Assembly (NCBI GenBank): GCA_027494055.1
Contig: JAOSJO010000023.1
Span: 377,919-441,918, forward strand
Direction: 5' to 3'
Source of the DNA: Anaerolineae bacterium
Lineage (GTDB): Bacteria; Chloroflexota; Anaerolineae; Aggregatilineales; JAFGMM01
Length of the DNA stretch: 64,000 nt
The notes under the pieces are model-generated. The model worked only from the letters and a program-made list of their open reading frames with translations. It did no database searches and was not told the DNA's origin. This document shows, in pieces, positions 5,577 to 58,215 of the stretch. The first letter of the stretch is position 1. Each line of letters starts with the position of its first letter. Both the position numbers and the translations under genes were made by a program.

Positions 5577-5600
5577 GGGGCACGGCGCGCGCCGTGCCCC
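5577..5600 (-). promoter_or_regulatory. perfect 24-nt GC palindrome (hairpin) immediately after the SBP gene
   Basis: ggggcacggcgcgcgccgtgcccc is its own reverse complement. It lies between the SBP stop (5619) and the permease start (5489) and has no U-tract. Confidence 0.6.
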
Positions 5601-5618
5601 TTGACGGTCAAACCGGTG

Positions 5619-6911
5619 CTAATCGATCTGGCAGATGCCCTCGCTCGGCGGGTCGGGCGGCCAGCAAGCCGCGCCGGTGTCGTCCAGGAGCGCCTGGATA
5701 TTGGCGGCCTCCTCGTCCAGCACGGTCTGGATGTCCTCACCGTCGATCACGATGCGCTCGAAGGCAGCGCGGAAGATCTCGTTCAGTTCGCCGCCGCGCT
5801 CACCGAGGCCGACAGGCAGCAGCGCTGGCAGCGCATTCGGGCTGTTCGCCTGCGCCGTCACGGCCTCCGCCTCGATGGCGACCTCGACGGGCAGCTCTGT
5901 CATATCGACGCCGCTGACGACCGGGAAGAAGGCCAGGTCGCGCAGGACGGCGGCCTGGGTGTCGGGCTGGGTCATGTAGTCAATCAGCGCCATCGCGCCA
6001 TCGGGGTTGGGTGCGGTCTTGGGGATGGAGAGGCCGACGATCACCGGCATGAAGCCAAGCCCCGCCGGGCCGGACGGCGCCGGGAAGGCCACGAAGTCGT
6101 CCGGGGCCTCGCGGAACGCCTCGATCAGGCGCGCGGTGTGGTCAAACGCCACCCAGACCTCACCGGCCAGCAGCGGCTCCTGCATGAAAGCATAGGAGGT
6201 TGACTGCCGATGGATGTTCGGCCAGAGCGTGTCGCGGAGGAACTCGAACATCTCCACCGCCGCCTCGCTCTTGAACTGCGTCACCATGCCGCCGGTGTAC
6301 GACGGGTAGATGTAACCCTCCAGGAAGCGGTGCCACAGGCCACCCTCGCCGAGCGGGAAACCGCAGCGCGCGGAGCCGGTCTCGTCGGTGATGTTCTGGC
6401 ACCACGCGGCAAGCTCGTCCCACGTCATCGCGTTGATGTCCACGCCGTCGGGCAGGTATTCCAGCGCATCCACATGGGCGGCCATGATGTACGTCGCCTG
6501 CATCCACGGGATGTAGTACTGGTAATCGTCGGTGCCCATCAGGCCCAGCTCGACGAAAGCCTCGGCCAGTTCGCGGTCCGCTTCCAGGTCATCCAGCAGG
6601 TCGGTGAGTTCCATCAGCAGGTCCTCGCGCGCCAGCGTGGGGTACCCGCCGTGCAGGATGCCGACCACATCGATGGTGCCCGCGCCCGCTGCGGCCTCGG
6701 CGCGGATCAGGTCGATCAACTCGCCTTCCTGAAGGTTGCTGAAGTACTCAACATCGCCGAACTCGCCCAGGATTGCCTGGAACTTCTCGTTCTCCTCTAC
6801 CGGCGTGAACTGCGTGCCGTAGAAGACAACCCCGTCCTGGGCCAGCACGACAACCGTGCTCAGTACGAGTACGGCGGCGATGAAGGTCAGGCCAAATCGC
6901 TTGAACGTCAT
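5619..6911 (-). CDS. ABC transporter extracellular solute-binding protein (family 1, sugar type)
   Basis: Intact 430-aa ORF. The N-terminal signal or anchor is MTFKRFGLTFIAAVLVLSTVVVLAQDG. It is the first transporter gene after the LacI regulator. Confidence 0.9.
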   Translation of the reverse strand: MTFKRFGLTFIAAVLVLSTVVVLAQDGVVFYGTQFTPVEENEKFQAILGEFGDVEYFSNLQEGELIDLIRAEAAAGAGTIDVVGILHGGYPTLAREDLLMELTDLLDDLEADRELAEAFVELGLMGTDDYQYYIPWMQATYIMAAHVDALEYLPDGVDINAMTWDELAAWCQNITDETGSARCGFPLGEGGLWHRFLEGYIYPSYTGGMVTQFKSEAAVEMFEFLRDTLWPNIHRQSTSYAFMQEPLLAGEVWVAFDHTARLIEAFREAPDDFVAFPAPSGPAGLGFMPVIVGLSIPKTAPNPDGAMALIDYMTQPDTQAAVLRDLAFFPVVSGVDMTELPVEVAIEAEAVTAQANSPNALPALLPVGLGERGGELNEIFRAAFERIVIDGEDIQTVLDEEAANIQALLDDTGAACWPPDPPSEGICQID

Positions 6912-6989
6912 CTCTCACTCCTCCTGTCAATCAGGATAACTCGGCATCACATGGATTGGTTTCAACAGGTTGCATCTGTCAGTGGCAGT

Positions 6990-8013
6990 TCACCTCCTCG
7001 ATCCTACGCGGACGCCAGACGATTCACGCACTACCAGCTCCGGCTTGAGCAGCACGTGCGCGTCGTCGAGCGGCTCGCCGTTGATGACCCGGATCAACAT
7101 CCGGCACGTGAGCCGCCCGATCTCATAGATTGGCTGGCGCACGGTGGTGAGCGGCGGGTTGGCGTACTCGGCGTCAGGCACGTCGTCGAACCCACCCACA
7201 ACAACATCGACGCCGACCTCCAGGCCACGCTGGCGGATGGCGCTCATCACGCCAAACGCCATCGTGTCGTTGCCCGCCAGGATGGCGGTTGGCGGCGGGT
7301 CGAGTTCGAGCAGCACGTCGGCGCAGCCGGCCCCGCCGCGCTGGGTCAGGTGGCCGGGCACCACGAGGCGCTGGTCATAGGGGAGGCCGTTTGCCTCCAG
7401 CGCGTTGCGGTAGCCGGCGATGCGGTGCCGGGTGAAGTTGAGGTCGAGGGGGAGACGCGGCATAGGCAATGCGGCGATGGCCCGTGTCGATGAAGTGCTG
7501 CGTCAGGAGCTGCATCCCGAACGTGCCGTCCACATCGACATAGGGGAAGTCCTCGCGGCGGGCGCGCCCGAAGGCGACGAACGGCGTCCCCTTCTTGATC
7601 AGGTAATCGATGCGCGCGTCCTCGTGGCGCGTGCGCACCACGATCAGGCCGTCGGTCCGCCCGCCTTCCATGCGGCGGTAGGCGTCCAGCTCGCCGGGGC
7701 CGGGCGGCTGCGTGCTCACCAACAGGTCGAAGTTGTGCTCCGCCGCCTCGTTGCCGACGCCGGCCAGCAGTTCGCTGAAAAACGGGTCAGAGAATCGGGG
7801 GCCAAAGGTGGGGATAATCAGCCCGACGGTGTTGGCGCGCTGGAAGCGCAGTTGGCGCGCGGCCTCATTCGGGCGGTAGCCGAGACGCTCCGCCGTATCC
7901 TGTATCAGGCGGCGGGTGGACTCGGCAACGTCATCATAGCCGGCCAGCGCGCGCGAAACCGTGGTAACAGAAAACCCCGTCTCGCGGGCGATGGTCTTCA
8001 GCGTGACACGCAC
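6990..8013 (-). CDS. LacI-family transcriptional regulator, frameshifted as assembled
   Basis: ORF 7375..8013 has the HTH TIARETGFSVTTVSRALAG. After ...GHRRIAY (about 7462-7476) the effector-domain sequence continues in ORF 6990..7469 (LPLDLNFTRHRIAGYRNALEANGLPY...GNDTMAFGVMSAIRQRGLEVG...). Confidence 0.9.
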
Positions 8014-8037
8014 CGGTTACTCCGTGTGTCGAATTAA

Positions 8038-8051
8038 CCAAAACGTTTCGG
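8038..8051. promoter_or_regulatory. LacI-type operator palindrome O2 (CCAAAACGTTTCGG)
   Basis: A 14-mer that matches its own reverse complement at 12 of 14 positions, with a perfect AAACGTTT core. It lies just downstream of the -10 box of the lacI-operon promoter. Confidence 0.65.
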
Positions 8052-8060
8052 ACATTTTTC

Positions 8061-8088
8061 ATTATAGTCCAAAACGTTTCGGAGTCAA
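8061..8088 (-). promoter_or_regulatory. sigma70-type promoter of the LacI/ABC operon
   Basis: Read on the minus strand: TTGACT (8083-8088), a 16-nt spacer, then TATAAT (8061-8066). A GGAG Shine-Dalgarno precedes the GTG start at 8013. Confidence 0.7.
8069..8082. promoter_or_regulatory. LacI-type operator palindrome O1 (CCAAAACGTTTCGG)
   Basis: Identical 14-mer, 31 bp from O2. It fills the spacer between the -35 and -10 boxes. Confidence 0.65.
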
Positions 8089-8153
8089 CTTGAGATTGAC
8101 GAAAGTAGTCGGGAAGTTAAGTAAAGAAACGACAAAGGGCCGCCGGCCTGTCC

Positions 8154-8960
8154 TTACGGCTGGCCCACCACCCGCAACTGCTGCGCTGGGCTGAAGAACG
8201 CGCGATAGGTCAGGAAAGCGGCGCTCAGGCCGGTGAAGGTGTTCGCGCCGACCAGCATGTACATTACGATAAGCTGGAGCTGCACCGCCTCGATGGGCGA
8301 CGCGCCGGCGAGAATCATGCCCGTCATCGCGCCGGGCAGCTTGATGAGGCCGACGGTCTTGGTGGTGTCAATGATAGGCACCATCGCGCTCTGCAGAGCG
8401 CGGCGGAACTGCGTCAGCGAGGCCTGCCGCCCGGTTGCGCCCAGCGCCAGCTTCGTCTCGACCTCATTGCGCTGCGCGGCCAGGTCATCGGACAGGCGCA
8501 CGATGACGAGTGTGGCGGTGGTCATCGCGTTGCCGACGATCATGCCGCCGATGGGGATGATGGCCTGCGGCGTGAAGGCAAACACATCCAGCAGCACCAG
8601 CACCCCGATGGTCAGCGCCGTGCCAAAGCCAATCGACACCAGCGCGATCAGCGTCGCGCGCGGCGTGTTCTCGCCGCGCCGCCCCGTCGTGCGCGCGGCA
8701 ATCAACACCATCACGCCGAGCAGGAGCAGCGTCCAGACGGGGTTGTCCTGCTGGAAGATCAGCTCCAGCAGATAGCCGATGGCGATCAGTTGCACGAAGC
8801 TGCGCACAGTCGCCCAGAACAGGTCTTTCTCCAGGTCGGCCCGCTGCCAGCGCGAGATCAGCGCGGCCACCGCCACGAACAGCATCGCCAGCAGGACGCG
8901 CGAGAGGTCGCCCAGGCCGGCAAACAGGTCGCCGCCAAACAGGTCGTTGAGGATTTCCAT
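8154..8960 (-). CDS. fetB: iron-export ABC transporter permease FetB (YbbM/UPF0014 family)
   Basis: Intact 268-aa ORF, colinear with E. coli FetB as I remember it. Matching segments include IPIGGMIVGNAM, KLALGATGRQAS, TVGLIKLPGAMTGMILAG and LTYRAFF. Confidence 0.85.
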   Translation of the reverse strand: MEILNDLFGGDLFAGLGDLSRVLLAMLFVAVAALISRWQRADLEKDLFWATVRSFVQLIAIGYLLELIFQQDNPVWTLLLLGVMVLIAARTTGRRGENTPRATLIALVSIGFGTALTIGVLVLLDVFAFTPQAIIPIGGMIVGNAMTTATLVIVRLSDDLAAQRNEVETKLALGATGRQASLTQFRRALQSAMVPIIDTTKTVGLIKLPGAMTGMILAGASPIEAVQLQLIVMYMLVGANTFTGLSAAFLTYRAFFSPAQQLRVVGQP

Positions 8961-34378: not shown

Positions 34379-35896
34379 TCAGCGCGGCTGATCCGCCACA
34401 TCCTGCGCCCCCAGCGCGTGACGCAGGATGTCGTCGGCGCGCGCGGTGAAGCCGTCGAGTTCGGCAGCGAGCGCGCCGGCCCGCATCACGAGCACCCGGT
34501 GCGCCAGGCCCAGCACCTCAGGCAGCTCGGAGGCGACCAGCAGGATCGCGTTGCCCTCGCGCGCGAGGCGGGCGATCAACTCGTAGATTTCGAACTTGAC
34601 GCCGACATCGATGCCCTGGGTCGGCTCCATCAGGATGAAGATCCGCGCGTGGACCGCCAGCCACTTCCCCAGCGCGACCTTCTGCTGGTTGCCACCGCTG
34701 AGGTTGCCCACCTTCTGGACGAGAGACGGCGTCTTGATGTCCAGCTCTTCGACCTGCTGCGCCGCGATGGCACGCTCCTGCGCCCGGTTCACCACCCCGG
34801 CGCGGGCGATGCGCCCCAGCGAGGCAAGCGCGATGTTGCGCTGCACGCTGAGGTTCTGGATCACGCCCTCGACCTTGCGGTCCTCCGGCACGCAGATGAC
34901 GCCGGCGGCAATCGCGCTGGAGGGGCTGGGCGCAAACGGCTGCCCGCCCACGCTGATGCGCCCGGCGCGGATGGGATAGTCCCCGAAGATGGCCTTCGCA
35001 AGCTCGGTCTTGCCGGAGCCGCCCACGCCCGTAAGCGCCAGCACCTCCCGGCGCGGAGCGCAAAGCTCACGTCGGTAAACGCGCCATCGGCAGCGGTCAG
35101 CTCTTCCACGCGCAGCAGCGGCGCGCCCGGCGCGGGATTGCGCGCGGGGAAGACCGTCTCCAGCCGGCGACCGATCATATCGGTGATGAGCAGGTCGGCA
35201 GTGACCTCGCCGATGGGCGCGGTGCGCACGTGTTTGCCGTCGCGCAGCACCGTGACCGTGTCGGCAAGCTGGAAGATTTCCTCCAGCCGGTGCGAGACGT
35301 AGAGGATGGTCGCGCCCCGCGCCTTGAGGATGGCGATCACGTCAAACAGCGCATCGACCTCCTGCTGGTTGAGCGCGGCGGTCGGCTCATCCATGATGAA
35401 CAGCGTCGCCTCGTTCAGCAACGCCTTGGCGATCTCGACCAACTGCTTCTCGCTGACCTTGAGGCTCTCGACCGGGGCGCGCACGTCCATGTGCCCGGCC
35501 TTGAGCGTCGCCAGGATCGACTCGGTCTCGCGGCGCATGGCGCGGTGGTCGATGACGCCCAGGCCGCGCCTCGGCTCCTTGCCCAGCATCACGTTGCTCA
35601 TCACGCTGCGCGTGGGCAGGAGGTTGAGTTCCTGGTAGATGGTGGACACGCCCGCCGCGAATGCGTCCTTCGGGGGTGTGGGGGTTGTAGGGCCGGCCGT
35701 CCAGGACGATCTCGCCGGCGTCGCGCGGGATCGCGCCGGAGAGCACCTTGATGAGCGTGGACTTGCCCGCGCCGTTCTCGCCGATCAGGGCGTGCACGTG
35801 GCCGGCCGCGACCGCAAACGACACGCCGTCGAGCGCCTGCACGCCAGGGAAGCGCTTGCTGATGTCGGTGAGCGTGAGCTTCGTGCTGTGCGCCAT
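34379..35896 (-). CDS. sugar ABC transporter ATP-binding protein with two ATPase domains (RbsA/MglA type), two frameshifts as assembled
   Basis: The pieces are 35387..35896 ([10 protein letters not shown]), 34861..35649 ([25 protein letters not shown]) and 34379..35044 ([35 protein letters not shown]). They join at the G5 run 35672-35676 and the C3 run 35047-35049. Confidence 0.9.
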
Positions 35897-35897
35897 C

Positions 35898-36863
35898 TCA
35901 GCGGACCATCACGCGCAGCCGGTCGAGCGAGAGCGCGACGATCAGGATCGCGCCGGAGACGATGCGCTGGATGTTGATGTCCGCGCCGAGGTGGATCAGG
36001 CCGTTGTCGATTGCCATCAGGAAGATCGCCGCCGCCAGCACATTCAGCACCCGCCCGCGCCCGCCGGAAAGGCTGATGCCGCCCAGGATCACGGCGGTGA
36101 GGATCGGAAACAGGAAGTTGCCGCCCATGCCCGCCCCCGCCGACCCCCGGCGCGCCGCCGCCATCACGCCGCCGAACCCGGCCAGCAGGCCCGCGATCAC
36201 GAAGGCGTACAGGCGGATGCGCGCGGTCTTGATGCCGGAGAGCCAGGTGGCCTTGTCGTTCGAGCCGGTGGCGTAGATGTAGGCCCCGAAGGTGGTATAC
36301 GAGAGTACGAAGTGCGCGATCAGGTAGAACAAGAACAACAGGATCACCGGCACCGGCACCGGGCCGACCCACCCCGTGTAGAGAAACTCGATCGGGTCGA
36401 TTGCATCCCCGTAGATGGTATGGCCGCCGGTGTACGTCAGGCCCAGGCCATCGAGGATGGTCATCATGCCCAACGTGGCGATGATCGGGTTGATGCCGAT
36501 CAGGGTCACGAGCAGGCCGTTGACCAGGCCGATCAGCCCGCCGGCCCCAACCGCGATGAGCACCGCCAGCGCCGGCGGCAGGGAGAAGTCCACGATGCCG
36601 GCCGCGACGATGATGGCGGTCAACCCCAGCGTGGACGCGACCGAGACATCCATGGTCCCCAGCATGACGATCAGGCTCTCGCCGATGGCGACGATGCCGA
36701 TGATGGCGGCCTGCCGCACGACCTTGGAGGCGTTGTCCCAGGTCATGAACGTGTTGGTCTGTAGCGCCAGGAACAACACCCAGAGCAAGAAGATGACGTA
36801 GAAGCCATTCTCGCTGATGAAATCGACCACTCTGCGCCGGTCTAGTTTGAGCGAAGCGTCCAT
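35898..36863 (-). CDS. ribose-type ABC transporter permease (RbsC/BPD_transp_2 family)
   Basis: Intact 321-aa multi-TM ORF. Its stop abuts the ATPase start. Confidence 0.9.
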
Positions 36864-36892
36864 TTTTCCTCGCGTTGTGACGCGCCGGTCAG

Positions 36893-36924
36893 GGCGGGGG
36901 CGCGCAGACGGTCGCGCCCCCGCC
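36893..36924 (-). promoter_or_regulatory. perfect 12-bp GC hairpin immediately after the SBP gene
   Basis: ggcgggggcgcg (36893-36904) pairs with cgcgcccccgcc (36913-36924) across an 8-nt loop. It lies between the SBP stop (36945) and the permease start (36863). Confidence 0.6.
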
Positions 36925-36944
36925 GGTCCCTCAGTACAAGATGG

Positions 36945-38881
36945 TTACGGGTTCAGTGTCTCGGCGGTGATGAGTTCGATGGGGACGCGGACGTTGGCGG
37001 GCGCGTCCGCGCCGACCAGCAGCTTCACCACCGCGTTTGCGGCGAGCAGACCGTTCGCGTCCGGCGCGGTCGAGACCGTCCCCCGGAAGTAGTAGCCGTC
37101 CTGCAGGTATTGCAGCGCCTGCGCTTCCGCGTCGATCCCCACCACGATCACCTCATCCGCCCCTTCCCGGCGGCCTCCAACGCCTGCACCGCCCCATACG
37201 CCCCCGCGTCGTTGATCGACACCACCACGTCGATGTCCGGGTGCGCCTGCAGCGCGCTCTCCATGCTCGTCAGCCCGAAGTCCGCCGTCCCGCCCAGGTA
37301 CCGACCCACCACCGTCGCCCCTGGCGCGCCCTCCAGCAACGCCGCCTCGATGTTGTCCGCTCGGATCACCACGTTCGGCAGGTCAGGGTAGTCCAGGATC
37401 GCCACCACCGCCTCCCCGCCCAGCTCCTCCGCAATGAGCTGCCCGGCATACTCCCCAGCGGCCCACCCCAGGTCGGCGTCCTCAATCGCGATCGACACCC
37501 CGCCGAACTGCTGCGCGCTCCCCGCCCCGCGTACTGCACGATCGCGATCCCGGCCTCCGCCGCCTCCCTGCAGCGCATTCGCCACCGCTGGCGGGTCCAG
37601 CACGCAGATCACCAGCGCGCTCACACCCCGCGCTGTGAAGCTCTCGATCCCCGAGATCTGCAGCTCCGTGTCCGCCTGCAGATCGAAGATCTCCGCCCGC
37701 AGCCCAACTTCCGCCAGCCGCGCCGCCGCCGCCTCCGCCGCCGCCGCGTGCCACTCGTTGCCCATCGTGCACGACACGACGCCCACCACGCCATCGCCCA
37801 GCGCCGCCTGCGCCGCCGCGATCTCCTCCGCCGTCGGCTCCAGGTCCGCCGCCGTCCCCATTGCCTGGGCGGCCAGCGTCTCGGCGGTGATGAGTTCGAT
37901 GGGGACGCGGACGTTGGCGGGCGCGTCCGCGCCGGCCAGCAGCTTCACCACCGCGTTTGCGGCGAGCAGACCGTTCGCGTCCGGCGCGGTCGAGACCGTC
38001 CCCCGGAAGTAGTAGCCGTCCTGCAGGTATTGCAGCGCCTGCGCTTCCGCGTCGATCCCCACCACGATCACCTCATCCGCCCCCTTCCCGGCGGCCTCCA
38101 ACGCCTGCACCGCCCCATACGCCCCCGCGTCGTTGATCGACACCACCACGTCGATGTCCGGGTGCGCCTGCAGCGCGCTCTCCATGCTCGTCAGCCCGAA
38201 GTCCGCCGTCCCGCCCAGGTACCGACCCACCACCGTCGCCCCTGGCGCGCCCTCCAGCAACGCCGCCTCGATGTTGTCCGCCCGGATCACCACGTTCGGC
38301 AGGTCAGGGTAGTCCAGGATCGCCACCACCGCCTCCCCGCCCAGTTCCTCCGCGATGAGCTGCCCGGCGTACTCCCCAGCAGCCCACCCCAGGTCGGCGT
38401 CCTCAATCGCGATCGACACCCCGCCGAACTGCTGCGCGCTCTCCCGCCCCGCGTACTGCACGATCGCGATCCCGGCCTCCGCCGCCTCCTGCAGCGCGTT
38501 CGCCACCGCTGGCGGGTCCAGCACGCAGATCACCAGCGCGCTCACGCCCCGCGCCGTGAAGCTCTCGATCCCCGAGATCTGCAACTCCGTGTCCGCCTGC
38601 GAATCGAAGATCTCCGCTCGCAGCCCAACTTCCGCCAGCCGCGCCGCCGCCGCCTCCGCCGCCGCCGCGTGCCACTCGTTGCCCATCGTGCACGACACGA
38701 CGCCCACCACGCCATCGCCCAGCGCCGCCTGCGCCGCCGCGATCTCCTCCGCCGTCGGCTCCAGATCCGCCGCCGTCCCCATCGGCTCTTCCTGCGCCTG
38801 GACCCGCGCCAATCCGGGCAGCCCCGCGATCAGCAGCAGGCAGACCAGGCTCGTCACCGCGTACAAGGTCGCCTTTTTCAT
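36945..38881 (-). CDS. periplasmic sugar-binding protein (type I PBP, RbsB-like) containing two tandem near-identical binding modules. The C-terminal module carries three indels as assembled.
   Basis: An ATG at 38881 follows GGAGGAG (MKKATLYAVTSLVCLLLIAGLPGLARVQAQEEP). The ~303-aa module MGTAADLEPTAEEIAAAQ...VPIELITAETL then occurs twice, joined by AAQA. The stop is at 36945-36947. Indels in the lower copy are at 37160-37163, about 37520 and 37566-37568. Confidence 0.85.
36954..38782 (-). repeat. 920-bp-period direct tandem duplication (units 36954-37861 and 37874-38782, 12-nt linker)
   Basis: By hand alignment the two units differ at 15 substitution positions and 3 single-base indels. Confidence 0.95.
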
Positions 38882-38992
38882 CGCCGTTTCTCCTCCGCAT
38901 TCCGTGCGAATATCAACCGAGATCAGAAGCCTGACGCATGTTTTCCGGGACACCTCCTTACCCTGCGAACAGCAAAGCGCCGGTCAACAGTC

Positions 38993-39961
38993 CTATCCGC
39001 CGGCGCTTTCGCTCTGGTCGGCCAGGTCAAGGACCTGGTGCGCCGTGTTCTCGTCGGTGACAACCACGTTCACGAAGCCGCCGCGCAGCGCGCCAAGCAA
39101 GGGAGCGACTTTCGCGGGGTCGCCCGCGACCCCGATGCTCAGCAGCGCGCGGCGCAGGTCCTCAAGCTCGATGCCGACCACGCGGTCATCGAAACTGGAG
39201 GGCATCGCTGCCCCCTGAATGTCGAAAAAGCGACCGCAGATGTCGCCGACAGCGCCGTGCTGCTCGACGGCGTTCAGTTCCTGGGCCGTCACAATCCCCG
39301 CGCGCACGTACACGTGATCGACCGCCGGGCAGCCGACCCCGACGACGTACACGTCCGCCGAGTGCGCCAGCCGCAGGGACTCCGCGATGCTCGGATTGGC
39401 GGCGGCCAGTTCGGCGGCGGCCCCAGAGCCGAGCACCGCCGGGGCGTTGAGGTAGGAAACCCGCGCGCCAAGCGCCTGGGCGGCGAGGCGGGCCAGCTCG
39501 TTGAAGTCGATGTCAGACGCCTCGTGCCCCAGCGCCCCCATCGCCTGCACCACCGTCACGTTCTCGACCGGGTGCGGCCTCAGCCAGCGAACCGTCTCGC
39601 GCAGGGTGCGCCCAGACCCGATGCACACGCGCTGGCCCGGCGCGATGTGCTCACAGAGATACTCGGCGCAGGCGCGCCCGATGGACTTGAGGACGACTGG
39701 CGGCTGGGTGGCGAAAAGCGGCGTCACGACCGCCTCTCTCAGGTTGGCGAAGCGCGCCTTAAGCGCGTCCTCTGCGTGGTTGACGCGCGCATCCGGGCTG
39801 ACGATGCGGATCTGGACGATGCCCACCTCGCGCGCCTCGGACAGATAGCGCGACACCTGGGAACGCGACAGCCCCAGCATCTGCGCGATCTCCTGCTGGG
39901 TATAGCCATTCTCGTAGTAGGCATGCGCCACTTCGAGGAGAAGGGTTGTCCGTTGATTCAC
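38993..39961 (-). CDS. SorC/DeoR-type sugar-binding transcriptional regulator
   Basis: Intact 322-aa ORF. The N-terminal HTH is LLLEVAHAYYENGYTQQEIAQMLGLSRSQVSRYLSEAREVGIVQIRIV, followed by a sugar-binding domain. Confidence 0.85.
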   Translation of the reverse strand: MNQRTTLLLEVAHAYYENGYTQQEIAQMLGLSRSQVSRYLSEAREVGIVQIRIVSPDARVNHAEDALKARFANLREAVVTPLFATQPPVVLKSIGRACAEYLCEHIAPGQRVCIGSGRTLRETVRWLRPHPVENVTVVQAMGALGHEASDIDFNELARLAAQALGARVSYLNAPAVLGSGAAAELAAANPSIAESLRLAHSADVYVVGVGCPAVDHVYVRAGIVTAQELNAVEQHGAVGDICGRFFDIQGAAMPSSFDDRVVGIELEDLRRALLSIGVAGDPAKVAPLLGALRGGFVNVVVTDENTAHQVLDLADQSESAGG

Positions 39962-40182
39962 ATTTGTGCATTCACATCTGTGCTGCGCATCTACAGCATA
40001 TTACAGGTCGCCCTGCGCTGTCAAGGGGCGCGCGCGGCCCAACACCGGGCAAGGGGTTGACCCTTTGTGATTGACGGGTATGCTTGACCCTGAATCCGCG
40101 AACGCGCCGAGCGTTGCCCGGCGCGCCCCGGCAGAGGTCGGGGCGCGCGTGCTTAACTGCATCCACGAAAGGGAGATTGGCC

Positions 40183-43625
<3,443 letters not shown>

Positions 43626-43765
43626 CGGCGCAACCGCGCCGCCTCGGCGAACTGCCCGCCAACTGGAGCCGGCGGGCCGCGAAAGACGCAGCACCGCTCG
43701 CCTGGAGTAAAACGGCGGCTACGAGGCAATGGGCCACACTATTGCATGACGACAGCGCAGAGTTG

Positions 43766-43831
43766 GAAACACGAAGCCACGAAAGGCGGGAAAAGTAAAA
43801 CGCCCATGCCATTCGTGGCTTCGCGTGTTTC
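43766..43831 (+). terminator. long hairpin with a T-rich tail downstream of lacZ
   Basis: gaaacacgaagccacgaa (43766-43783) pairs with ttcgtggcttcgCGtgtttc (43812-43831). That is 18 bp with a 2-nt bulge, followed by gtgctttcgtttt. Confidence 0.5.
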
Positions 43832-43908
43832 GTGCTTTCGTTTTACGCATCTGGGTGCCTGCATCGCTGTTCCCGGACTCCGTCATGCTATCCCCGCCGA
43901 CGAGTTAC

Positions 43909-43938
43909 TTGACACGCGCCCCCAAAAGCCTTTAGAAT
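43909..43938 (+). promoter_or_regulatory. sigma70-type promoter of the second LacI regulon
   Basis: TTGACA (43909-43914), an 18-nt spacer, then TAGAAT (43933-43938). Confidence 0.6.
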
Positions 43939-43940
43939 AC

Positions 43941-43967
43941 ATAAAACGGTTTACTAAAACGATTTGT
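43941..43967. promoter_or_regulatory. possible LacI-type operator pair (ATAAAACGGTTTAC / CTAAAACGATTTGT)
   Basis: Two adjacent imperfect AAAACG.TTT half-palindromes lie directly downstream of the -10 box. The symmetry is weaker than at 8038-8082. Confidence 0.35.
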
Positions 43968-44997
43968 GCGGCATTTGATGGGACGCAAGGCCAGCATCCG
44001 GGACGTCGCCAGGCGCGCCAGGGTCTCCCCGACGACCGTGTCCTTTGTGCTCAATGGCAGGGGGCAGGTCAGTGAGGAGACGCGCAAGCGCGTGCTTGCC
44101 GCGGTCGAGGCGCTGGACTACTCGCCAGACCTGCGCGCGCGCAGCCTGAAGAGCCAGCGGATCCAGACGCTTGCGCTCCTGTTCCTCTACTCAGAGGAGT
44201 CGCTGACGTCATCGCGCTACTTCCGGGACCTGACGGCCTCGATCTGCGCCAGGGCCAGCCGGTTCGACTACCGGGTGATGATCTCGCTCCTCCAGCGGAG
44301 CCAGTCCCTGGCCGATCACATCAAGATGCTGCGGCAGGATGGCCTCTCCAGCGGGCTGATCGTGGCCGCGCCCAGCCCGGAACAGGTCGAACTCATCGCC
44401 GACAACCTGGCGGAGTTCCCCGGCATCGTTGTGAGCGCCACCTCGCCCTACCCCAACCTCGGCTTTGTCGATGTGGACAACACCAACGCCATGGGCCAGG
44501 CAATCGAACACCTGATGACGCTCGGCCACCAGCGCATCGCCTATGTGACGCCGCAGGCGACCAGCAGCCACACGGTCGCGCGCCAGGCCGCGTACACCGA
44601 AGCGATGGCCGGTGTCGGGCTTGGCGGGTACGAGCGGGTTTTCATCGTGCCGCCCAACGGCGAAATCGCGGAGTCGGGGCTGTTGGATACCGCGCCGACA
44701 GCCGTCATCGCTTTCGACGATGTGCGGGCCATCCAGATCATGGACTTCCTGCGGCAGCGCGGCGTGCGCGTGCCGGAGGACATCGCAGTGATCGGCTTTG
44801 ACGATGAGGACTTCGGCCTGCACATCTCCCCGCGCCTGACGACGCTGGCGCAGCCCTTCTCAGAGATGGGCTGCCTTGTCGCCGACAGGCTCATCCAGCA
44901 GATCGAAGACCCGTCGCTGGAACCGGCGCAGTGCATCCTGTCGCTGCAACTGATCGTCCGCGAGTCGTGCGGCGCGGCGGAGACCGGGCGCCCCTGA
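43966..44997 (+). CDS. LacI-family transcriptional regulator
   Basis: Intact ORF with the HTH ASIRDVARRARVSPTTVSFVLNG and a periplasmic-binding-protein-like effector domain. The true start may be the ATG at 43978. Confidence 0.9.
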   Translation: MRHLMGRKASIRDVARRARVSPTTVSFVLNGRGQVSEETRKRVLAAVEALDYSPDLRARSLKSQRIQTLALLFLYSEESLTSSRYFRDLTASICARASRFDYRVMISLLQRSQSLADHIKMLRQDGLSSGLIVAAPSPEQVELIADNLAEFPGIVVSATSPYPNLGFVDVDNTNAMGQAIEHLMTLGHQRIAYVTPQATSSHTVARQAAYTEAMAGVGLGGYERVFIVPPNGEIAESGLLDTAPTAVIAFDDVRAIQIMDFLRQRGVRVPEDIAVIGFDDEDFGLHISPRLTTLAQPFSEMGCLVADRLIQQIEDPSLEPAQCILSLQLIVRESCGAAETGRP

Positions 44998-45072
44998 CAC
45001 ATCGCTGAAACAGGACGCCGTCGCCGGCGCGCCGGCGGCATTGCACAGGCTGAAACGCGAGGCGGTGACATC

Positions 45073-46101
45073 ATGGAGAAGATTCGCGTCGGATTGGTGG
45101 GGCTGGCCCAGGGCTGGTACGCCACGCTCTATTCGCGGGCCTGCGCGCAGATGCGCGACGTGGCGTTCGTCGGCGTGTGCGACCTCGGCGCTTCCGAGGC
45201 ATACGTCCAGGCCTGCGCCGAGACCAGCGCCGCCGCGTTCGCGGCGGAGTTGGGCGTGCCCCTGGTCCACGACTTTGACGCGCTGCTCGCCCACGAGCCG
45301 CACGCGCTCATCATCACGAGCGAGACCGCCGACCACCATCGCCACGCCGTGCCCGCCATCGAGGCCGGCATCCACGTGTTCATCGGCAAGCCCATGACCA
45401 CCTCCCTCGCCGCCGCGCAGGCCATCGTGGCGGCGGCGGAGAGGCAGCCGTCGGTCGTCGTCCTGCCGGGCGAGCCGGCGCGCTACGAAGACGGCATGAT
45501 CGAGGCGCGCGCGCGCCTCCAGGAGGGGCAGATTGGCCGCCCGCTGGTGGCGCACGTGTATGTCAACCACCTGGCGATGACAAACCACGCCTGGGAGATG
45601 AGCGCCGCGCGCAGCGGCAGCCCGCTCATCGAGTTCGGCAGCTACCCGGCTGACCTTGCCGAATGGATCGTCGGCGCGCCGATCACGTCGGTGTACGCCC
45701 TTGCGGACAACTTCTGCACGCCCCAGATCGAAGGGCCGGACAACGTGAAGATGCTCTGCCGCCACCAGAACGGCGCGATCAGCACGCTGGGTGTGTATTC
45801 CTCCATCACCTGGGATTATCCCTTCCTGGGCCTGGAGATCATCGGGGAGCGCGGTTGCCTCCGCGCCGATTACCACAACTACCCGGTCTACGTCCACCGG
45901 AAAGACGCGGTCCTGGTTTCGAGTCCGCGCTACTCACCTATGAACGCGCGCGAGATCGAGCACTTCATGGACTGCGTGCGCGGCAGGGCAACGCCCGTCA
46001 TTACGCCGCAGGAGTACGTGAGCACCATCCGGGTGCTGGAGGCGGCGCAACGGAGCATCGCGCACGGGCAGCCGGTTGAGATTGCGCGCGGGGAGACATG
46101 A
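45073..46101 (+). CDS. Gfo/Idh/MocA-family oxidoreductase
   Basis: Intact 342-aa ORF. It has an N-terminal Rossmann segment (IRVGLVGLAQGWYA) and EKP-like FIGKPMT. Confidence 0.9.
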   Translation: MEKIRVGLVGLAQGWYATLYSRACAQMRDVAFVGVCDLGASEAYVQACAETSAAAFAAELGVPLVHDFDALLAHEPHALIITSETADHHRHAVPAIEAGIHVFIGKPMTTSLAAAQAIVAAAERQPSVVVLPGEPARYEDGMIEARARLQEGQIGRPLVAHVYVNHLAMTNHAWEMSAARSGSPLIEFGSYPADLAEWIVGAPITSVYALADNFCTPQIEGPDNVKMLCRHQNGAISTLGVYSSITWDYPFLGLEIIGERGCLRADYHNYPVYVHRKDAVLVSSPRYSPMNAREIEHFMDCVRGRATPVITPQEYVSTIRVLEAAQRSIAHGQPVEIARGET

Positions 46102-47144
46102 AGCAGGTACGGATTGGCTTCATCGGCTGCGGCGAAATCGCCGAGATGCACCGGGAAGCGCTGGCGCGCATCCCGGAGGCGGCGCTGTGCGCCGTGCACG
46201 ACCGCGACACGGGCGCAGCCGAGGCGTTTGCCGCCCGCGAGGGCGTGCAGGCGGTCGGCGACGCTGCGGCGTTGCTCGCCGATGCGTCGCTCGACGCGGT
46301 CTACATCCTGACGCGGCACGATTCGCACCCGGAACTGACCATGCGGGCAGTCGCGGCGGGCAAGGCCGTCTTCTGCGAGAAGCCGCTCGCGCTCACGGTC
46401 GCGGAGGCCGATGCGGTCGTCAGCCAGGTCGAAAGCGCCGGCGCGACCGTGATGGTCGGCTTCAGCCACCGCTGGGACCCGGTCGTCCGGCGCGCGAAGG
46501 CGTGGGCCGACCGCCAGGCCACGCCCCCCATGACCCTGCACGTGTCATTTGTCACCTCGCCCTTCCTCGAAAGCTGGGCCGGGCTGCCTGACGAGGGCGG
46601 CGGCGTGTTCCACTGCCTGGGCAGCCATGCGGTTGACCTGGCCCAGTACCTGATGGGGCGCGCGTTCACCCGCGTCGAGGCCACGCAGGCGCGGCTGCGC
46701 CTCCCCGAACCGTACCTGCCGGACACCGCCGCGCTTCTGTTGCAGGCCGACGACGGCGCGCTGGCGAGCGTGCTCCTGCATGACCACGCCCCGGTCAGCT
46801 ACATCCAGTACGACACGGGGGAGGACAGCCACCTGCTGCGCGCGGAGCTGTTCGGCGACGGGTGGGCGGTCGTGATCGACAGCCTCTCGCGCCTCCGCTG
46901 CTACGACGCGCAGGGCTGCCACGAGGTTGCGGTTCGGTGCGACAGCCGCATCGAGCGTTTCGGCATCCTCGCTGAGAACCAACACTTTGTTCAGTGCGTG
47001 CTCCAGAGCGCGCCCCCTTCTCCGGGCGTGCGCGATGGAGCCAGCGTTGTCGCGTTGATCGAAACCGCCGCGAAGACCGCACAAAGCCGGTGGGGGCGTA
47101 TTCCGCAGCATGAGGCGATCGCCGCCGCGCGCAACTGGTCGTGA
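46098..47144 (+). CDS. Gfo/Idh/MocA-family oxidoreductase
   Basis: Intact 348-aa ORF with a 4-nt overlap on the previous gene. It has VRIGFIGCGEIAEMH and VFCEKPLA. Confidence 0.9.
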   Translation: MKQVRIGFIGCGEIAEMHREALARIPEAALCAVHDRDTGAAEAFAAREGVQAVGDAAALLADASLDAVYILTRHDSHPELTMRAVAAGKAVFCEKPLALTVAEADAVVSQVESAGATVMVGFSHRWDPVVRRAKAWADRQATPPMTLHVSFVTSPFLESWAGLPDEGGGVFHCLGSHAVDLAQYLMGRAFTRVEATQARLRLPEPYLPDTAALLLQADDGALASVLLHDHAPVSYIQYDTGEDSHLLRAELFGDGWAVVIDSLSRLRCYDAQGCHEVAVRCDSRIERFGILAENQHFVQCVLQSAPPSPGVRDGASVVALIETAAKTAQSRWGRIPQHEAIAAARNWS

Positions 47145-47271
47145 AACCGCTGCGCTGCCCCTCGCTCGCGAAGGTGCAAGGAGGAGCCTATCGGGAAGAT
47201 GCATGAAAGCCCATTATTTTCCGCAGTGTCGTTTGTTCTCTGCGCCCAGACACATTAAGGAGAGAGAGGAA

Positions 47272-55426: not shown

Positions 55427-58215
55427 TTAGCGGCGATTCCCAGGGCACCCCGGCGGTTCGCTAGCTTGGTTGCGCGGATAGCTGGCGGAGCGCATCGTGG
55501 TCCTACTGACAATCGGAGGTAAACCCTCCGGGCATGTCAGATCGTCGGTCAGAAACCGGCGATCCACAGCCGCTCGTAGCTGGGATACGGGTTGGCGTTT
55601 TCGTGCCAAACCTGATACCACGACCCGTCGGCATTCTGGCCGATCAGGATTAGCTCCTCGCCTTCGACGGCGGCCCTGATGTACGAGTTGTCGGCGTCGG
55701 GCGCGTCCCGGAGTTAGCCCGCTTGCGGCATTGGTCGTCGCCGTGCAGGACATATCCGTCACGCGCCAGAGCCGCACGTGCCGTCGTCGCCTCCCTGACC
55801 AGATATTCACCATCAGGCGACCAGTCTATCGAGTTCACCCAACTGGTGTGGCCGACCAGAGTGGCTAGCCGCTCGCCCGTGAGTGCGTCCCAGACGTAAA
55901 TCATGTCATGAAAGCCACCAGCCACGCGCATCCCATCCGGCGACCACATCGCATCATTGCCCTCAAACTCTATGAGAAGCTGACCGCTGACGGCATCCCA
56001 AAAGCGGAGGCTACGGTAATAGCCTCCAGTAGCGAGGCGCTCGCCATCCGGCAGCCACGCCACCCAGCCCCCGTCATTCAGCTGCACCTCAAACTCGTTA
56101 GCTGCTCGCCACTAATCGTGCTCCAGATACGCACCATAATCCTGCCATCAACGGAACCGACGCCCGCGAGGCGCGTCCCATCCGGCGACCAAGCCAGGCT
56201 TCTTTCACAGAAACCCCAATCGCAGTCGAACACGGCAAGCTGCGCCCCGCTGACCACGTCCCAAATAAACACCTTGTCGTCAGTTCCGGCGCTTGCCAGG
56301 CGCGTCCCATCCGGCGACCACCACGCGGATGACCAGAAAGCGTCGGTGTGGCCTTTTAACACGGCGAGCTTGTCGCCAGTCGCCACGTCCCAAACAACGA
56401 GGTCGAAGCCCTCCGCATACGCAAAAACCGCCCGATGGCCGGAGGCAGCCCAGGCGCTTTCACCGCCTTCATGGTCGGAAAAAGCCAGCGTCCATGTGAC
56501 CGGGTTGTAATAACTCCCCAAAGAGGTCATCCGTCAGGACACCCAGTTGCTCCCACTACTGGTATCCCAGACGAATACCGCGTCATCGAAAATCACGTTT
56601 CCGCCAACCGCCAAACGTGTTCCATCGGGTGACCATTTCATCGCAGTGGCCTGCGCTCCTGGGTTGAGAGCGGAAGCCGTCGCCCAGTGGCGGCATCCCA
56701 GATATAGACCGTGTCGTGTTCGTCCCAAACCACGCCCGCCAGACGCGATCCGTCCGGTGACCACGACACCCACTCGACCTCTTCGTCGAAGCTGTCTATA
56801 ACTGCCGGCAATGGAGCGATGGCGCTGCCGCCGTTGGCGTCGGGGTTGCAGTTTGAGCGGGGATGGCCGGGCGTCCTTGTGGTGACGGGCGTAGGTGTGG
56901 TGTGACCGTCGGTGCGGCGGTGACGCCGCTACCTGCACCGGCGTCACGGGCGTGACCGTCCAGGCCGCCTCGACATCGGTGATGACGGGCAGGGCGACGC
57001 CATCAGGACAGGTCAGCGCGTCGACCAGGCTGGCTGCAATCCAGGGCCTGGGTATCCCGCTCAGGTTACGGTGCCAGAGTTGAACCCATTCTCCGGCAGC
57101 ATCCTGCCCCGCCACGACCACCAGCATCCCCGCCCCATGGGTCCATCTTCGCGTAATCCCCGCCGGGGAGCGCAGATTTGCGTTCGTGTTGACGACCGCT
57201 GTACAGAGATTGCTCCCCACATTCCAGAGCAGGACAACGCCGTCCTGGGTTCCGAGGGCTAAGCGCGCGCTGTCGGGCGACCAGGCCAGCGCATTCGCCC
57301 TGCCGCATGGCCTATCGGAATGGACGATGGTTCCCAGGCGGACGTATCCCAATAATGCACCGCACCAACGCCACCGCTCGCAAGGTACGCGCCATCGGTG
57401 ACCAGGCCATCCCGCCATAAAGCTCTCCAGACGGACACTCTAGAGCGGCCAATTCCCGACCGTCGATGACATCCCAAACGTAAATACACTCCTCCACCCG
57501 ATCGCCACATTCACGCCGCCAGAGGACCAGGCGACCCTATCAATCCCGGATACACAACAATCGACCTGGACGAAGCCGATGCTGTCCCAGAGGCTCAACC
57601 AGTTCGATGTGTCCCCATACACCCAATCATTCCCATCCCAGCAGATCACGCGAGGCCCCTCTTCCCACCAACTTACATCACCCATGTTCTCACAATACTG
57701 CCACTCGTACTCGCGCACCTCCTGTGCCACGTCCCAGACATTCATATAGTTCCGATAATCCAGCGTGACAACGTGGTGCTGTCAGGCGACCAAAACACCT
57801 GGGAGATACCGCGCCAGCGGGAACGATCCGTCAGCGCGGTCAGTTGGACGCCCGGCATGGCGACGTCCCAAATGCGTACGTCCTCGTCTTCTATGCCGCC
57901 AGTCGCCAAGGCGTCCCATCGGGCGACCACGCCACCGAGACCGCACCGTAGCTGTGAGCTTTCCAGGCGGCAAGGTGTTCGCCGCTGGCGGCGTCCCAGA
58001 GATGCACGGTCCCATCGCTGCCGCCGCTCGCCAGTTGTGTCCCATCCGGCGACCACACCACAGAGGTGACCTCGCCCACATGCCCTTCCAACACAACCGG
58101 CAGATCGATGGACGTTTGCGCCTCGGCGGTAGGGCGCACCACCCTCAAGTGAGAAAACGAAAACGGCCACAAGGACTATAACCAGGGCACGCAATCCCTT
58201 ATTTATGCGCATCAT
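55427..58215 (-). pseudogene. WD40-repeat protein with two SH3b-like domains and an N-terminal membrane anchor, heavily frame-disrupted as assembled
   Basis: GGAGG precedes ATGATG at 58215 ([21 protein letters not shown]). At least twelve minus-strand ORF fragments then each carry WSPDG..LA.GG...V..WD repeats (for example 57891..58172, 57440..57745, 56078..56530 and 55650..56087). Two SH3b-like segments each end in W-I-A-x-x-L-x-D-x-LTCP-x-G (about 57000-57200 and 55500-55700). Confidence 0.75.

Follow-up and report, generated by a model that had tools for sequence, protein, structure and literature searches.

The window analysed here is a 64-kb stretch (64,000 nucleotides) of contig JAOSJO010000023.1 from an Anaerolineae bacterium of the Chloroflexota (assembly GCA_027494055.1). 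Its minus strand carries a gene for an RbsB-like sugar-binding protein in which the whole mature domain is encoded twice. Module 1, the N-terminal copy, lies at 37874-38782 (909 nt, 303 intact codons) and encodes a complete RbsB-like type-I binding domain. Module 2, the C-terminal copy, lies at 36954-37861 (908 nt) and is 98.4% identical to module 1, from which it is also set apart by three single-base indels. The modules are joined head-to-tail by a 12-nt linker at 37862-37873, GCCGCCCAGGCA, which reads in frame as GCC GCC CAG GCA and encodes AAQA. BLASTN aligns them with 892 identities in 910 positions and three gaps of 1 nt. The junction runs ...GAGACGCTG-GCCGCCCAGGCA-ATGGGGACG...; the 30-mer GAGACGCTGGCCGCCCAGGCAATGGGGACG marks the duplicated form, and the joins GAAGAGCCGATGGGGACG and GAGACACTGAACCCGTAA mark a single-copy form. 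This head-to-tail, in-frame layout was first proposed in a sequence-only reading of the window, and its positions proved accurate to one base. The repeat is the sole long near-identical one in the window, and Tandem Repeats Finder, with a longest period of 500, is silent on it.

The gene is preceded by a Shine-Dalgarno-like GGAGGAG at 38890-38896 on the minus strand, 8 nt upstream of the ATG at 38881. The same sequence stands in the orthologous locus of contig L005 (BAAHIC010000063.1, 11.7 kb), which belongs to a second metagenome-assembled genome (MAG), GCA_054679365.1. A leader of 33 codons, MKKATLYAVTSLVCLLLIAGLPGLARVQAQEEP, read from the translation of 38783-38881, resembles a Sec-type signal peptide, with VQA/Q as its AxA site and no lipobox. 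The repeated unit matches Peripla_BP_4 (PF13407) with 137.4 bits against a gathering score of 35.1, over profile positions 1-257 of 258, and a phmmer search of the PDB returns ribose-binding proteins (E = 3.5e-23). An AlphaFold2 model of a single unit, built with a 60-sequence alignment, reaches a predicted local distance difference test score (pLDDT) of 96 and a predicted template modelling score of 0.88. The nearest solved folds found by Foldseek are the ribose-binding proteins 2ioy and 2fn9 (E of about 1e-20, template modelling (TM) score 0.73-0.88). Each module is predicted to form two alpha/beta lobes with the topology of RbsB, and by its sequence the unit is assigned to the CUT2/RbsB-like type-I periplasmic binding proteins. 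As in that family, it is encoded together with a BPD_transp_2 permease and a double ATP-binding cassette (ABC) ATPase. Its score against the RbsB equivalog NF007936 is below the cut-off (87.4 bits versus 337), and no other sugar-specific NCBIfam equivalog was reached.

The edges of the repeat coincide with those of the domain. The N-terminal 25 residues, MGTAADLEPTAEEIAAAQAALGDG, are conserved in the subfamily and ordered in the AlphaFold2 model; they carry the motif LGTAEDLEPTxxEIAAA, in which G2, D6, L7 and E13 are invariant or nearly so across the family. The repeat unit starts at the first residue of this motif and ends two codons ahead of the stop. What is duplicated thus corresponds exactly to the conserved folded domain. 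The corrected two-module protein, modelled without an alignment, reaches a pLDDT of 51, which is too poor to show the geometry of the linker.

Reading frame and the three indels of module 2

The gene is broken in the sequence as assembled. The open reading frame (ORF) covers 37148-38953 and encodes 601 aa from a GTG or 577 aa from the ATG at 38881, ending at a premature stop at 37148-37150. The stop is due to a missing base in the C run at 37160-37163, and the final 68 codons of the gene stand in a different frame. NCBI accordingly annotates two fragments of 577 and 68 aa (MCZ7545525.1 and MCZ7545524.1, locus tag M5R40_19270). The 577-aa product is present in the protein cluster table, and an exact look-up of it gave no contig record. 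In its assembled form the sequence thus does not encode a single continuous polypeptide. All three indels fall in module 2 and none in module 1: one base too many in the C run at 37566-37568, one lost at about 37521, and C4 for C5 at 37160-37163. The first two form a +1/-1 pair 47 nt apart that scrambles 16 codons. The sequence-only reading had placed the indels correctly in the lower copy, which on the minus strand is the C-terminal module. Three single-base corrections, all of which fit the error profile of the window, give a continuous frame of about 645 aa with the layout leader - module 1 - AAQA - module 2 - NP-stop. The native C-terminus, Asn-Pro-stop (AAC CCG TAA, 36945-36953, minus strand), is in frame with module 2 only after these corrections, and L005 shares the ETLNP-stop ending with the Logan contigs L001 and L002.

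The original proposal treated the indels as a matter of sequencing error, and comparison with L005 supports reading them as probable errors. This contig is collinear with the window over 34554-47184 at 95.7-96.5% identity, and all of its genes are intact. Against it, the beta-galactosidase gene of the window (40183-43619, plus strand) has six coding indels and is split into at least three frame segments, the RbsA-type ATPase gene has two, and the SorC-type regulator gene holds a compensated pair at 39203/39211, 8 nt apart. A further compensating pair, 26 nt apart, lies within the beta-galactosidase gene. These indels are single-base and occasionally 2-nt changes, and several of them, not most, fall in short homopolymer runs. 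On the minus strand, a LacI-like gene at 7014-8010 is also broken across frames. The overall rate is about one indel per kb of coding sequence, and three within 908 nt are compatible with it (Poisson P(>=3) = 0.08 for a mean of 1). Since neighbouring genes that L005 has intact are broken by similar indels, the three indels of module 2 are most likely consensus errors. The assembly is probably a long-read one and prone to indels, the technology being judged from this profile.

Genuine frameshifts are the other way to read these sites. The duplication would then be real and module 2 decaying, leaving a 577-aa product with one good module followed by a truncated and scrambled one, or the gene would be on its way to being lost or collapsed to a single copy. 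Tandem duplications are intrinsically unstable. Module 2 has all three indels and both amino-acid changes, one of them (S61L) at a position where serine is the family majority, and its branch is the longer one, with 12 changes against 3. The relaxed constraint expected of a decaying copy is not seen, however: among the 12 changes that arose in module 2, nine are synonymous, and the ratio of nonsynonymous to synonymous substitution rates (omega) between the modules is 0.07. The same type of indel occurs in neighbours that are intact in L005, including the ATPase of the same transporter, and the compensating pairs (47 nt apart here, 8 nt in the regulator, 26 nt in the beta-galactosidase) look like a property of the consensus. 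Decay is accordingly judged improbable.

The junction and the differences between the modules

The linker matches the end of the leader, CAGGAAGAGCCG, at 4 of 12 positions and the 3' tail, AACCCGTAACCA (tail also given as AACCCGTAA), at 5 of 12, and has no homology to either flank of the repeat. Its codons are typical of coding sequence and the frame is kept. At the protein level AAQA resembles the ends of homologue leaders, which close with ASAQEE, AAAQEA or VFAQEEA directly before MGT (AAQEA/MGT in P0004, ASAQEE/MGT, VFAQEEA/MGT), and it may be what is left, after divergence, of the end of a leader. An origin by templating from elsewhere in the window was considered and is unsupported: four matches with at most one mismatch were found against 1.8 expected, none of them adjacent, and the window shows no enrichment of the 12-mer.

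A junction built by overlap or collapse would add no new sequence, and the in-frame linker matching neither flank therefore speaks for a real one, as do the position of both breakpoints at conserved-domain edges and the existence of comparable multi-module proteins elsewhere. Since module 2 differs from module 1 by transitions only, apart from its indels, it would rest on many reads. On these grounds the junction probably exists in the sampled DNA, and an intact two-module gene is slightly favoured. The strengths given here to the junction, the intact gene, its decay and an artefact are matters of judgement, not computation.

Several observations weigh against an intact two-module gene. The ORF is broken as assembled, with the indels divided 0 versus 3 between the copies. 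The L005 orthologue (P0001) is a single-module protein of 338 aa on an unbroken contig with about 96% nucleotide identity and the same synteny, and L005 is the only other genome of the species-level group. The four closest homologues (79-99% identity) are single-module as well. A check of homologue lengths, proposed with the original observation, goes the same way, the best 120 of 379 homologues being all single-module, with 302-456 aa and no two-module protein of about 640 aa among them. Exact scans of genome and metagenome contig collections did not find the junction 23-mer. A 227-aa query centred on the junction retrieved the orthologue at 48% coverage and no cluster representative spanning the junction; a 117-aa junction query matched nothing, the orthologue included, and is uninformative. 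The linker has only four residues between compact domains, against about 12-20 in other natural multi-module proteins. With L005 as outgroup, the derived changes number 12 in module 2 and 3 in module 1 (binomial p = 0.035). Finally, the junction occurs in a single error-prone assembly.

These points lend weight to the view that the doubling is an assembly artefact. The genome would then hold a single-copy gene for a 338-aa protein, which a chimeric or mis-joined path had duplicated before polishing sorted the alleles of two strains onto the copies. In its favour are the single-copy closest relative with identical synteny, the lack of the junction in the other data sets searched, an assembly that is demonstrably indel-prone, and an omega between the copies equal to that between strains. 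Mixed populations are plausible, as at least four other samples or sequencing runs (short-read runs SRR23375771, SRR23375769, SRR24152391 and DRR771675) contain strains with 99.3-99.6% identity to the window. Moreover, the terminal copy in L001 agrees with module 1 at 37015 and with module 2 at 36957, a mixture that points to ordinary population polymorphism for at least that site. A mis-join should not, however, make 12 nt of new, codon-like, in-frame sequence. The breakpoints lie 0 and 2 codons from the domain edges, for which the chance at random is, by our own inference, very roughly 1e-4; the window contains no other duplication; and module 2 is well polished (0.3% indels, otherwise transitions only), which argues for many reads and not one chimeric read. 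An artefact is therefore considered unlikely. Concatenated haplotypes or an unresolved overlap would give a join made only of flank sequence, unlike the linker observed. The Logan contigs with an identical permease are about 1.2 kb long and have ends that lie 20-80 nt to one side or the other of the 3' edge of the repeat, which makes them uninformative on copy number. For this locus, neither the GTDB representative set nor the JGI contigs include the species: the best matches are 82% and 69% identical.

A codon-aware comparison of the modules gives 15 substitutions in addition to the 3 single-base indels, and every substitution is a transition. Twelve of the 15 are synonymous. Codon 61 is changed from Ser to Leu by two adjacent substitutions (37680-37681) and codon 283 from Ala to Val by one (37015), in agreement with the earlier hand count of 15 substitutions, 12 of them synonymous, and two altered codons. 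The Nei-Gojobori method yields dS 0.054 and dN 0.0038, which supplies the formal estimate called for earlier (omega 0.07). The excess of synonymous changes is significant (binomial p = 2e-5; 5e-4 against a transitions-only expectation), and the all-transition pattern together with the low omega points to biological variation, not read noise. Each module compared with the L005 orthologue gives an omega of 0.08-0.09, and module 1 differs from that orthologue at 26 of 909 nt. Because omega against L005 is equally low, the synonymous bias cannot, on these sequences, separate paralogues from strain alleles, nor can it establish purifying selection within one genome. Alleles of two strains would be expected to show this signature too, a point that the sequence-only reading had granted, and in a polished long-read consensus from mixed strains, reads of two strains can sort onto the two copies of a repeat. 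The bias that led to the proposal of purifying selection on both copies is thus real, and coding evolution of the two copies within a single genome is unproven. Both amino-acid changes are derived in module 2. At the S61L site the difference takes the form of an adjacent-base GA/AG swap (on the plus strand CGA in the other copy and CAG in module 2). Such a swap could represent a paired insertion/deletion consensus error in place of two substitutions, and were S61L an artefact of this kind, A283V would be the one amino-acid difference left between the modules.

The substitutions are unevenly spread. Twelve of the 15 fall inside 337 nt (scan-statistic p of about 0.013), and the longest identical run between the modules is 347 nt (p of about 0.012). 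The divergence of 1.6%, concentrated as it is in the 337-nt block, is best read as the outcome of recombination, by gene conversion between the modules or by import of a diverged allele, and not as a steady build-up of changes after the duplication. The clustering first noticed by eye is thereby supported, and the gene conversion invoked to explain it is plausible by analogy with three-module orthologues that show concerted evolution (see below), though undemonstrated in the window gene itself.

The same mosaic could have arisen in an old two-module gene homogenised by gene conversion, the single copy of the relative being secondary, through repeat recombination or short-read collapse. The junction would be just as real, and only the age of the duplication would differ. 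Between modules that are 98.4% identical stands a linker that departs from the present leader end at 5-6 of 12 positions and by an indel, and diverged linkers with homogenised modules are also found in the three-module proteins; the mosaic of substitutions and the 347-nt identical run fit as well. Yet the relatives at 79-84% identity are all single-module, L005 is unbroken through the gene, and 12 nt are too few for dating. An ancient origin is regarded as quite doubtful.

A real in-frame doubling of the receptor domain is the reading preferred here. The window gene would encode a genuine, intact, two-module secreted sugar receptor belonging to a wider class of free binding proteins with two or three near-identical type-I modules, a reading given a probability of roughly 0.5. 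The whole mature domain of a CUT2-family (RbsB-like) binding protein would have been duplicated in frame in the lineage of the window MAG, the three indels of module 2 being consensus errors of an indel-prone, probably long-read, assembly. Exported by means of its Sec-type leader, the protein would offer two near-identical sugar sites per chain, in modules that presumably fold independently across the four-residue linker. Either module could dock on the transporter of RbsC dimer and RbsA ATPase encoded downstream. The expected benefit to transport would be that each exported chain brings twice as many binding sites and that receptor is more concentrated near the translocator; no new specificity would be expected.

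If the gene is genuine, it represents a young in-frame doubling of the whole receptor domain of a sugar ABC importer, and the relative offers the single-copy state to set against it. The pair would allow a direct test of receptor multivalency through binding stoichiometry, the rate of uptake at low substrate and docking competition. It would also imply that CUT2 importers have been selected for multivalent receptors, which would be the soluble equivalent of the tandem domains that GlnPQ carries fused to the membrane. If it is an artefact, it serves as a warning that, in a polished metagenome consensus, repeat copies may differ mostly at synonymous sites without this proving that both were under selection in one genome.

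Multi-module receptors elsewhere and the surrounding operon

Independently of the window, multi-module type-I binding proteins recur in metagenomes. When the assembled 577-aa product was used in a full HMMER scan against 1.84 billion cluster representatives, 12 proteins among the best 150 representatives showed two matched stretches. Half-against-half alignment of these proteins identified nine with two clearly homologous full modules and internal identities of 76-100%: 100% in P0145 and P0178, 98.9% in P0129, 98.2% in P0173, 93.8% in P0234, 91.7% in P0140, 83% in P0208, 82% in P0242 and 76% in P0183. Two copies of PF13407 were confirmed by Pfam in all five of those scanned. The halves of P0220 are 30% identical. 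P0251 aligned over 84 columns only (36%) and P0247 was left out of the internal comparison; neither is shown to be two-module. The known lengths are 577 aa (P0183), 595 aa (P0129), 622 aa (P0145), 630 aa (P0140) and 638 aa (P0178). In P0129 (contig L166) the modules share a long identical core, and their differences are concentrated towards the two ends. P0183 is found in identical form in four short-read contigs from three runs (SRR30802112, SRR30802113 and SRR25893914), and its gene (5001-6734 of L167, also in L168 and L169) closes a LacI-RbsK-RbsD-RbsA-RbsC operon. Because P0183 recurs identically in three samples inside a classical rbs operon, a two-module receptor with one RbsC/RbsA transporter is a reproducible natural arrangement.

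The clearest three-module examples come from Chloroflexota MAGs. A short-read contig of MAG JPNG_maxbin.037 (L028) encodes on its plus strand (5599-8595) a three-module Peripla_BP_4 lipoprotein of 998 aa. An orthologue with the same layout is encoded on the plus strand of L027, from a second Chloroflexota MAG, between 4870 and about 7700, with a frameshift in its third module. Both genes adjoin one for a 500-aa RbsA-type ATPase. The modules are 91-97% identical at the nucleotide level within each protein versus 86-88% between species, and because identity within a protein exceeds that between species, the sequences indicate concerted evolution by gene conversion. In at least this one orthologous pair the likeness of the modules would thus have been kept by gene conversion across speciation. 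The literature searched yielded no paper describing free multi-module type-I binding proteins. The architecture therefore appears to have precedents in the sequence databases and to be uncharacterised in the literature, and the earlier statement that no example was known agrees with the literature searched and not with the databases, which contain both two- and three-module proteins, the P0183 operon included. As a separate observation, P0133, P0137, P0148 and many other matches of 650-690 aa combine Pkinase with Peripla_BP_4. By their domain content these relatives would be Ser/Thr receptor kinases in which an RbsB-like sensor domain forms the C-terminal extracellular part.

With its frame corrected, the window gene would share with these metagenome proteins a single ORF that encodes one leader and, behind it, two or three complete binding domains; CUT2 genes adjoin, and the modules are often near-identical (76-100% in those compared). 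The metagenome proteins are only about 30% identical to the window protein, however, and for this reason the duplications are taken to be independent. Their linkers comprise about 12-20 residues rich in Ala, Pro and Glu, compared with four residues in the window protein. Several of them are lipoproteins (LSAC or LAAC), whereas the window protein has an AxA site. P0183 is present in several independent short-read assemblies and the window junction in one assembly.

In common with the RbsB-type CUT2 proteins 2ioy, 2fn9 and 2dri, the window protein has a Peripla_BP_4 domain and the RbsB fold (TM 0.73-0.88), at 22-28% identity, and genes for an RbsC-type permease and an RbsA-type double ATPase adjoin its gene. 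The solved relatives of RbsB are all single modules of about 270-320 residues, in contrast to the doubled window gene, and the window subfamily adds to RbsB the conserved, ordered N-terminal segment of about 25 residues. The window operon has a SIS-domain protein and a PfkB kinase where rbs has RbsK and RbsD.

Tandem substrate-binding domains are known from GlnPQ of Lactococcus lactis, which carries two such domains on one polypeptide that serve one ABC translocator; the two bind amino acids, have the type-II (class F) fold, are attached covalently to the membrane domain and are unlike each other in specificity and affinity (PMC8025302; Fulyani et al. 2013 via PMC4245157). GlnPQ-type importers are the only experimentally studied model for docking competition between tandem receptors and for a raised local receptor concentration. 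The modules of the window gene, by contrast, are predicted to be near-identical type-I sugar binders on a free exported protein. They share neither the membrane fusion nor the type-II fold of GlnPQ, the permease being encoded by a separate gene beyond an 81-nt spacer with a hairpin.

The minus-strand operon runs in the order SorC/DeoR-type regulator, binding protein, RbsC-type permease, RbsA-type ATPase, SIS-domain protein and PfkB kinase. The gene for the SorC/DeoR-type sugar-binding regulator (38993-39961, minus strand; PF04198, 211 bits) lies directly upstream of the binding-protein gene, and its product scores 226 bits against the NCBIfam DeoR model, under the cut-off of 420. The RbsC-type permease (BPD_transp_2; 35898-36863, minus strand; PF02653, 112 bits) is intact with 321 aa, and the exact protein is present in five Logan contigs. 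The RbsA-type double ABC ATPase is encoded at 34379-35896 on the same strand, where single-base indels at about 35672 and about 35047 cut the gene into three adjacent ORFs with partial PF00005 matches. Upstream, on the opposite strand, lie genes for a GH2 beta-galactosidase, a LacI regulator and two GFO/IDH/MocA oxidoreductases. A plus-strand ORF of 1007 aa (37037-40060), antisense to the binding-protein and regulator genes, is not taken as a gene: the translation is rich in Arg and Pro, as is usual for spurious frames antisense to genes in 68% GC DNA.

The 81-nt spacer between the binding-protein and permease genes contains a GC stem-loop with a perfect 12-bp stem and no U tract (36893-36924, minus strand). 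The 87-nt intergenic stretch folds with a minimum free energy of -40.8 kcal/mol (z = -2.2), and the stem-loop is kept in outline in L005 and the Logan contigs. Judged by its sequence and position, it could act as an intercistronic mRNA stabiliser or as an attenuator setting the ratio of receptor to permease. Elsewhere in the window, the region 55912-58073 holds diverged direct repeats of 40-90 nt (63-80% identity, spacing 111-1735 nt) inside minus-strand ORFs, which would encode a repeat-containing protein, possibly of the beta-propeller type.

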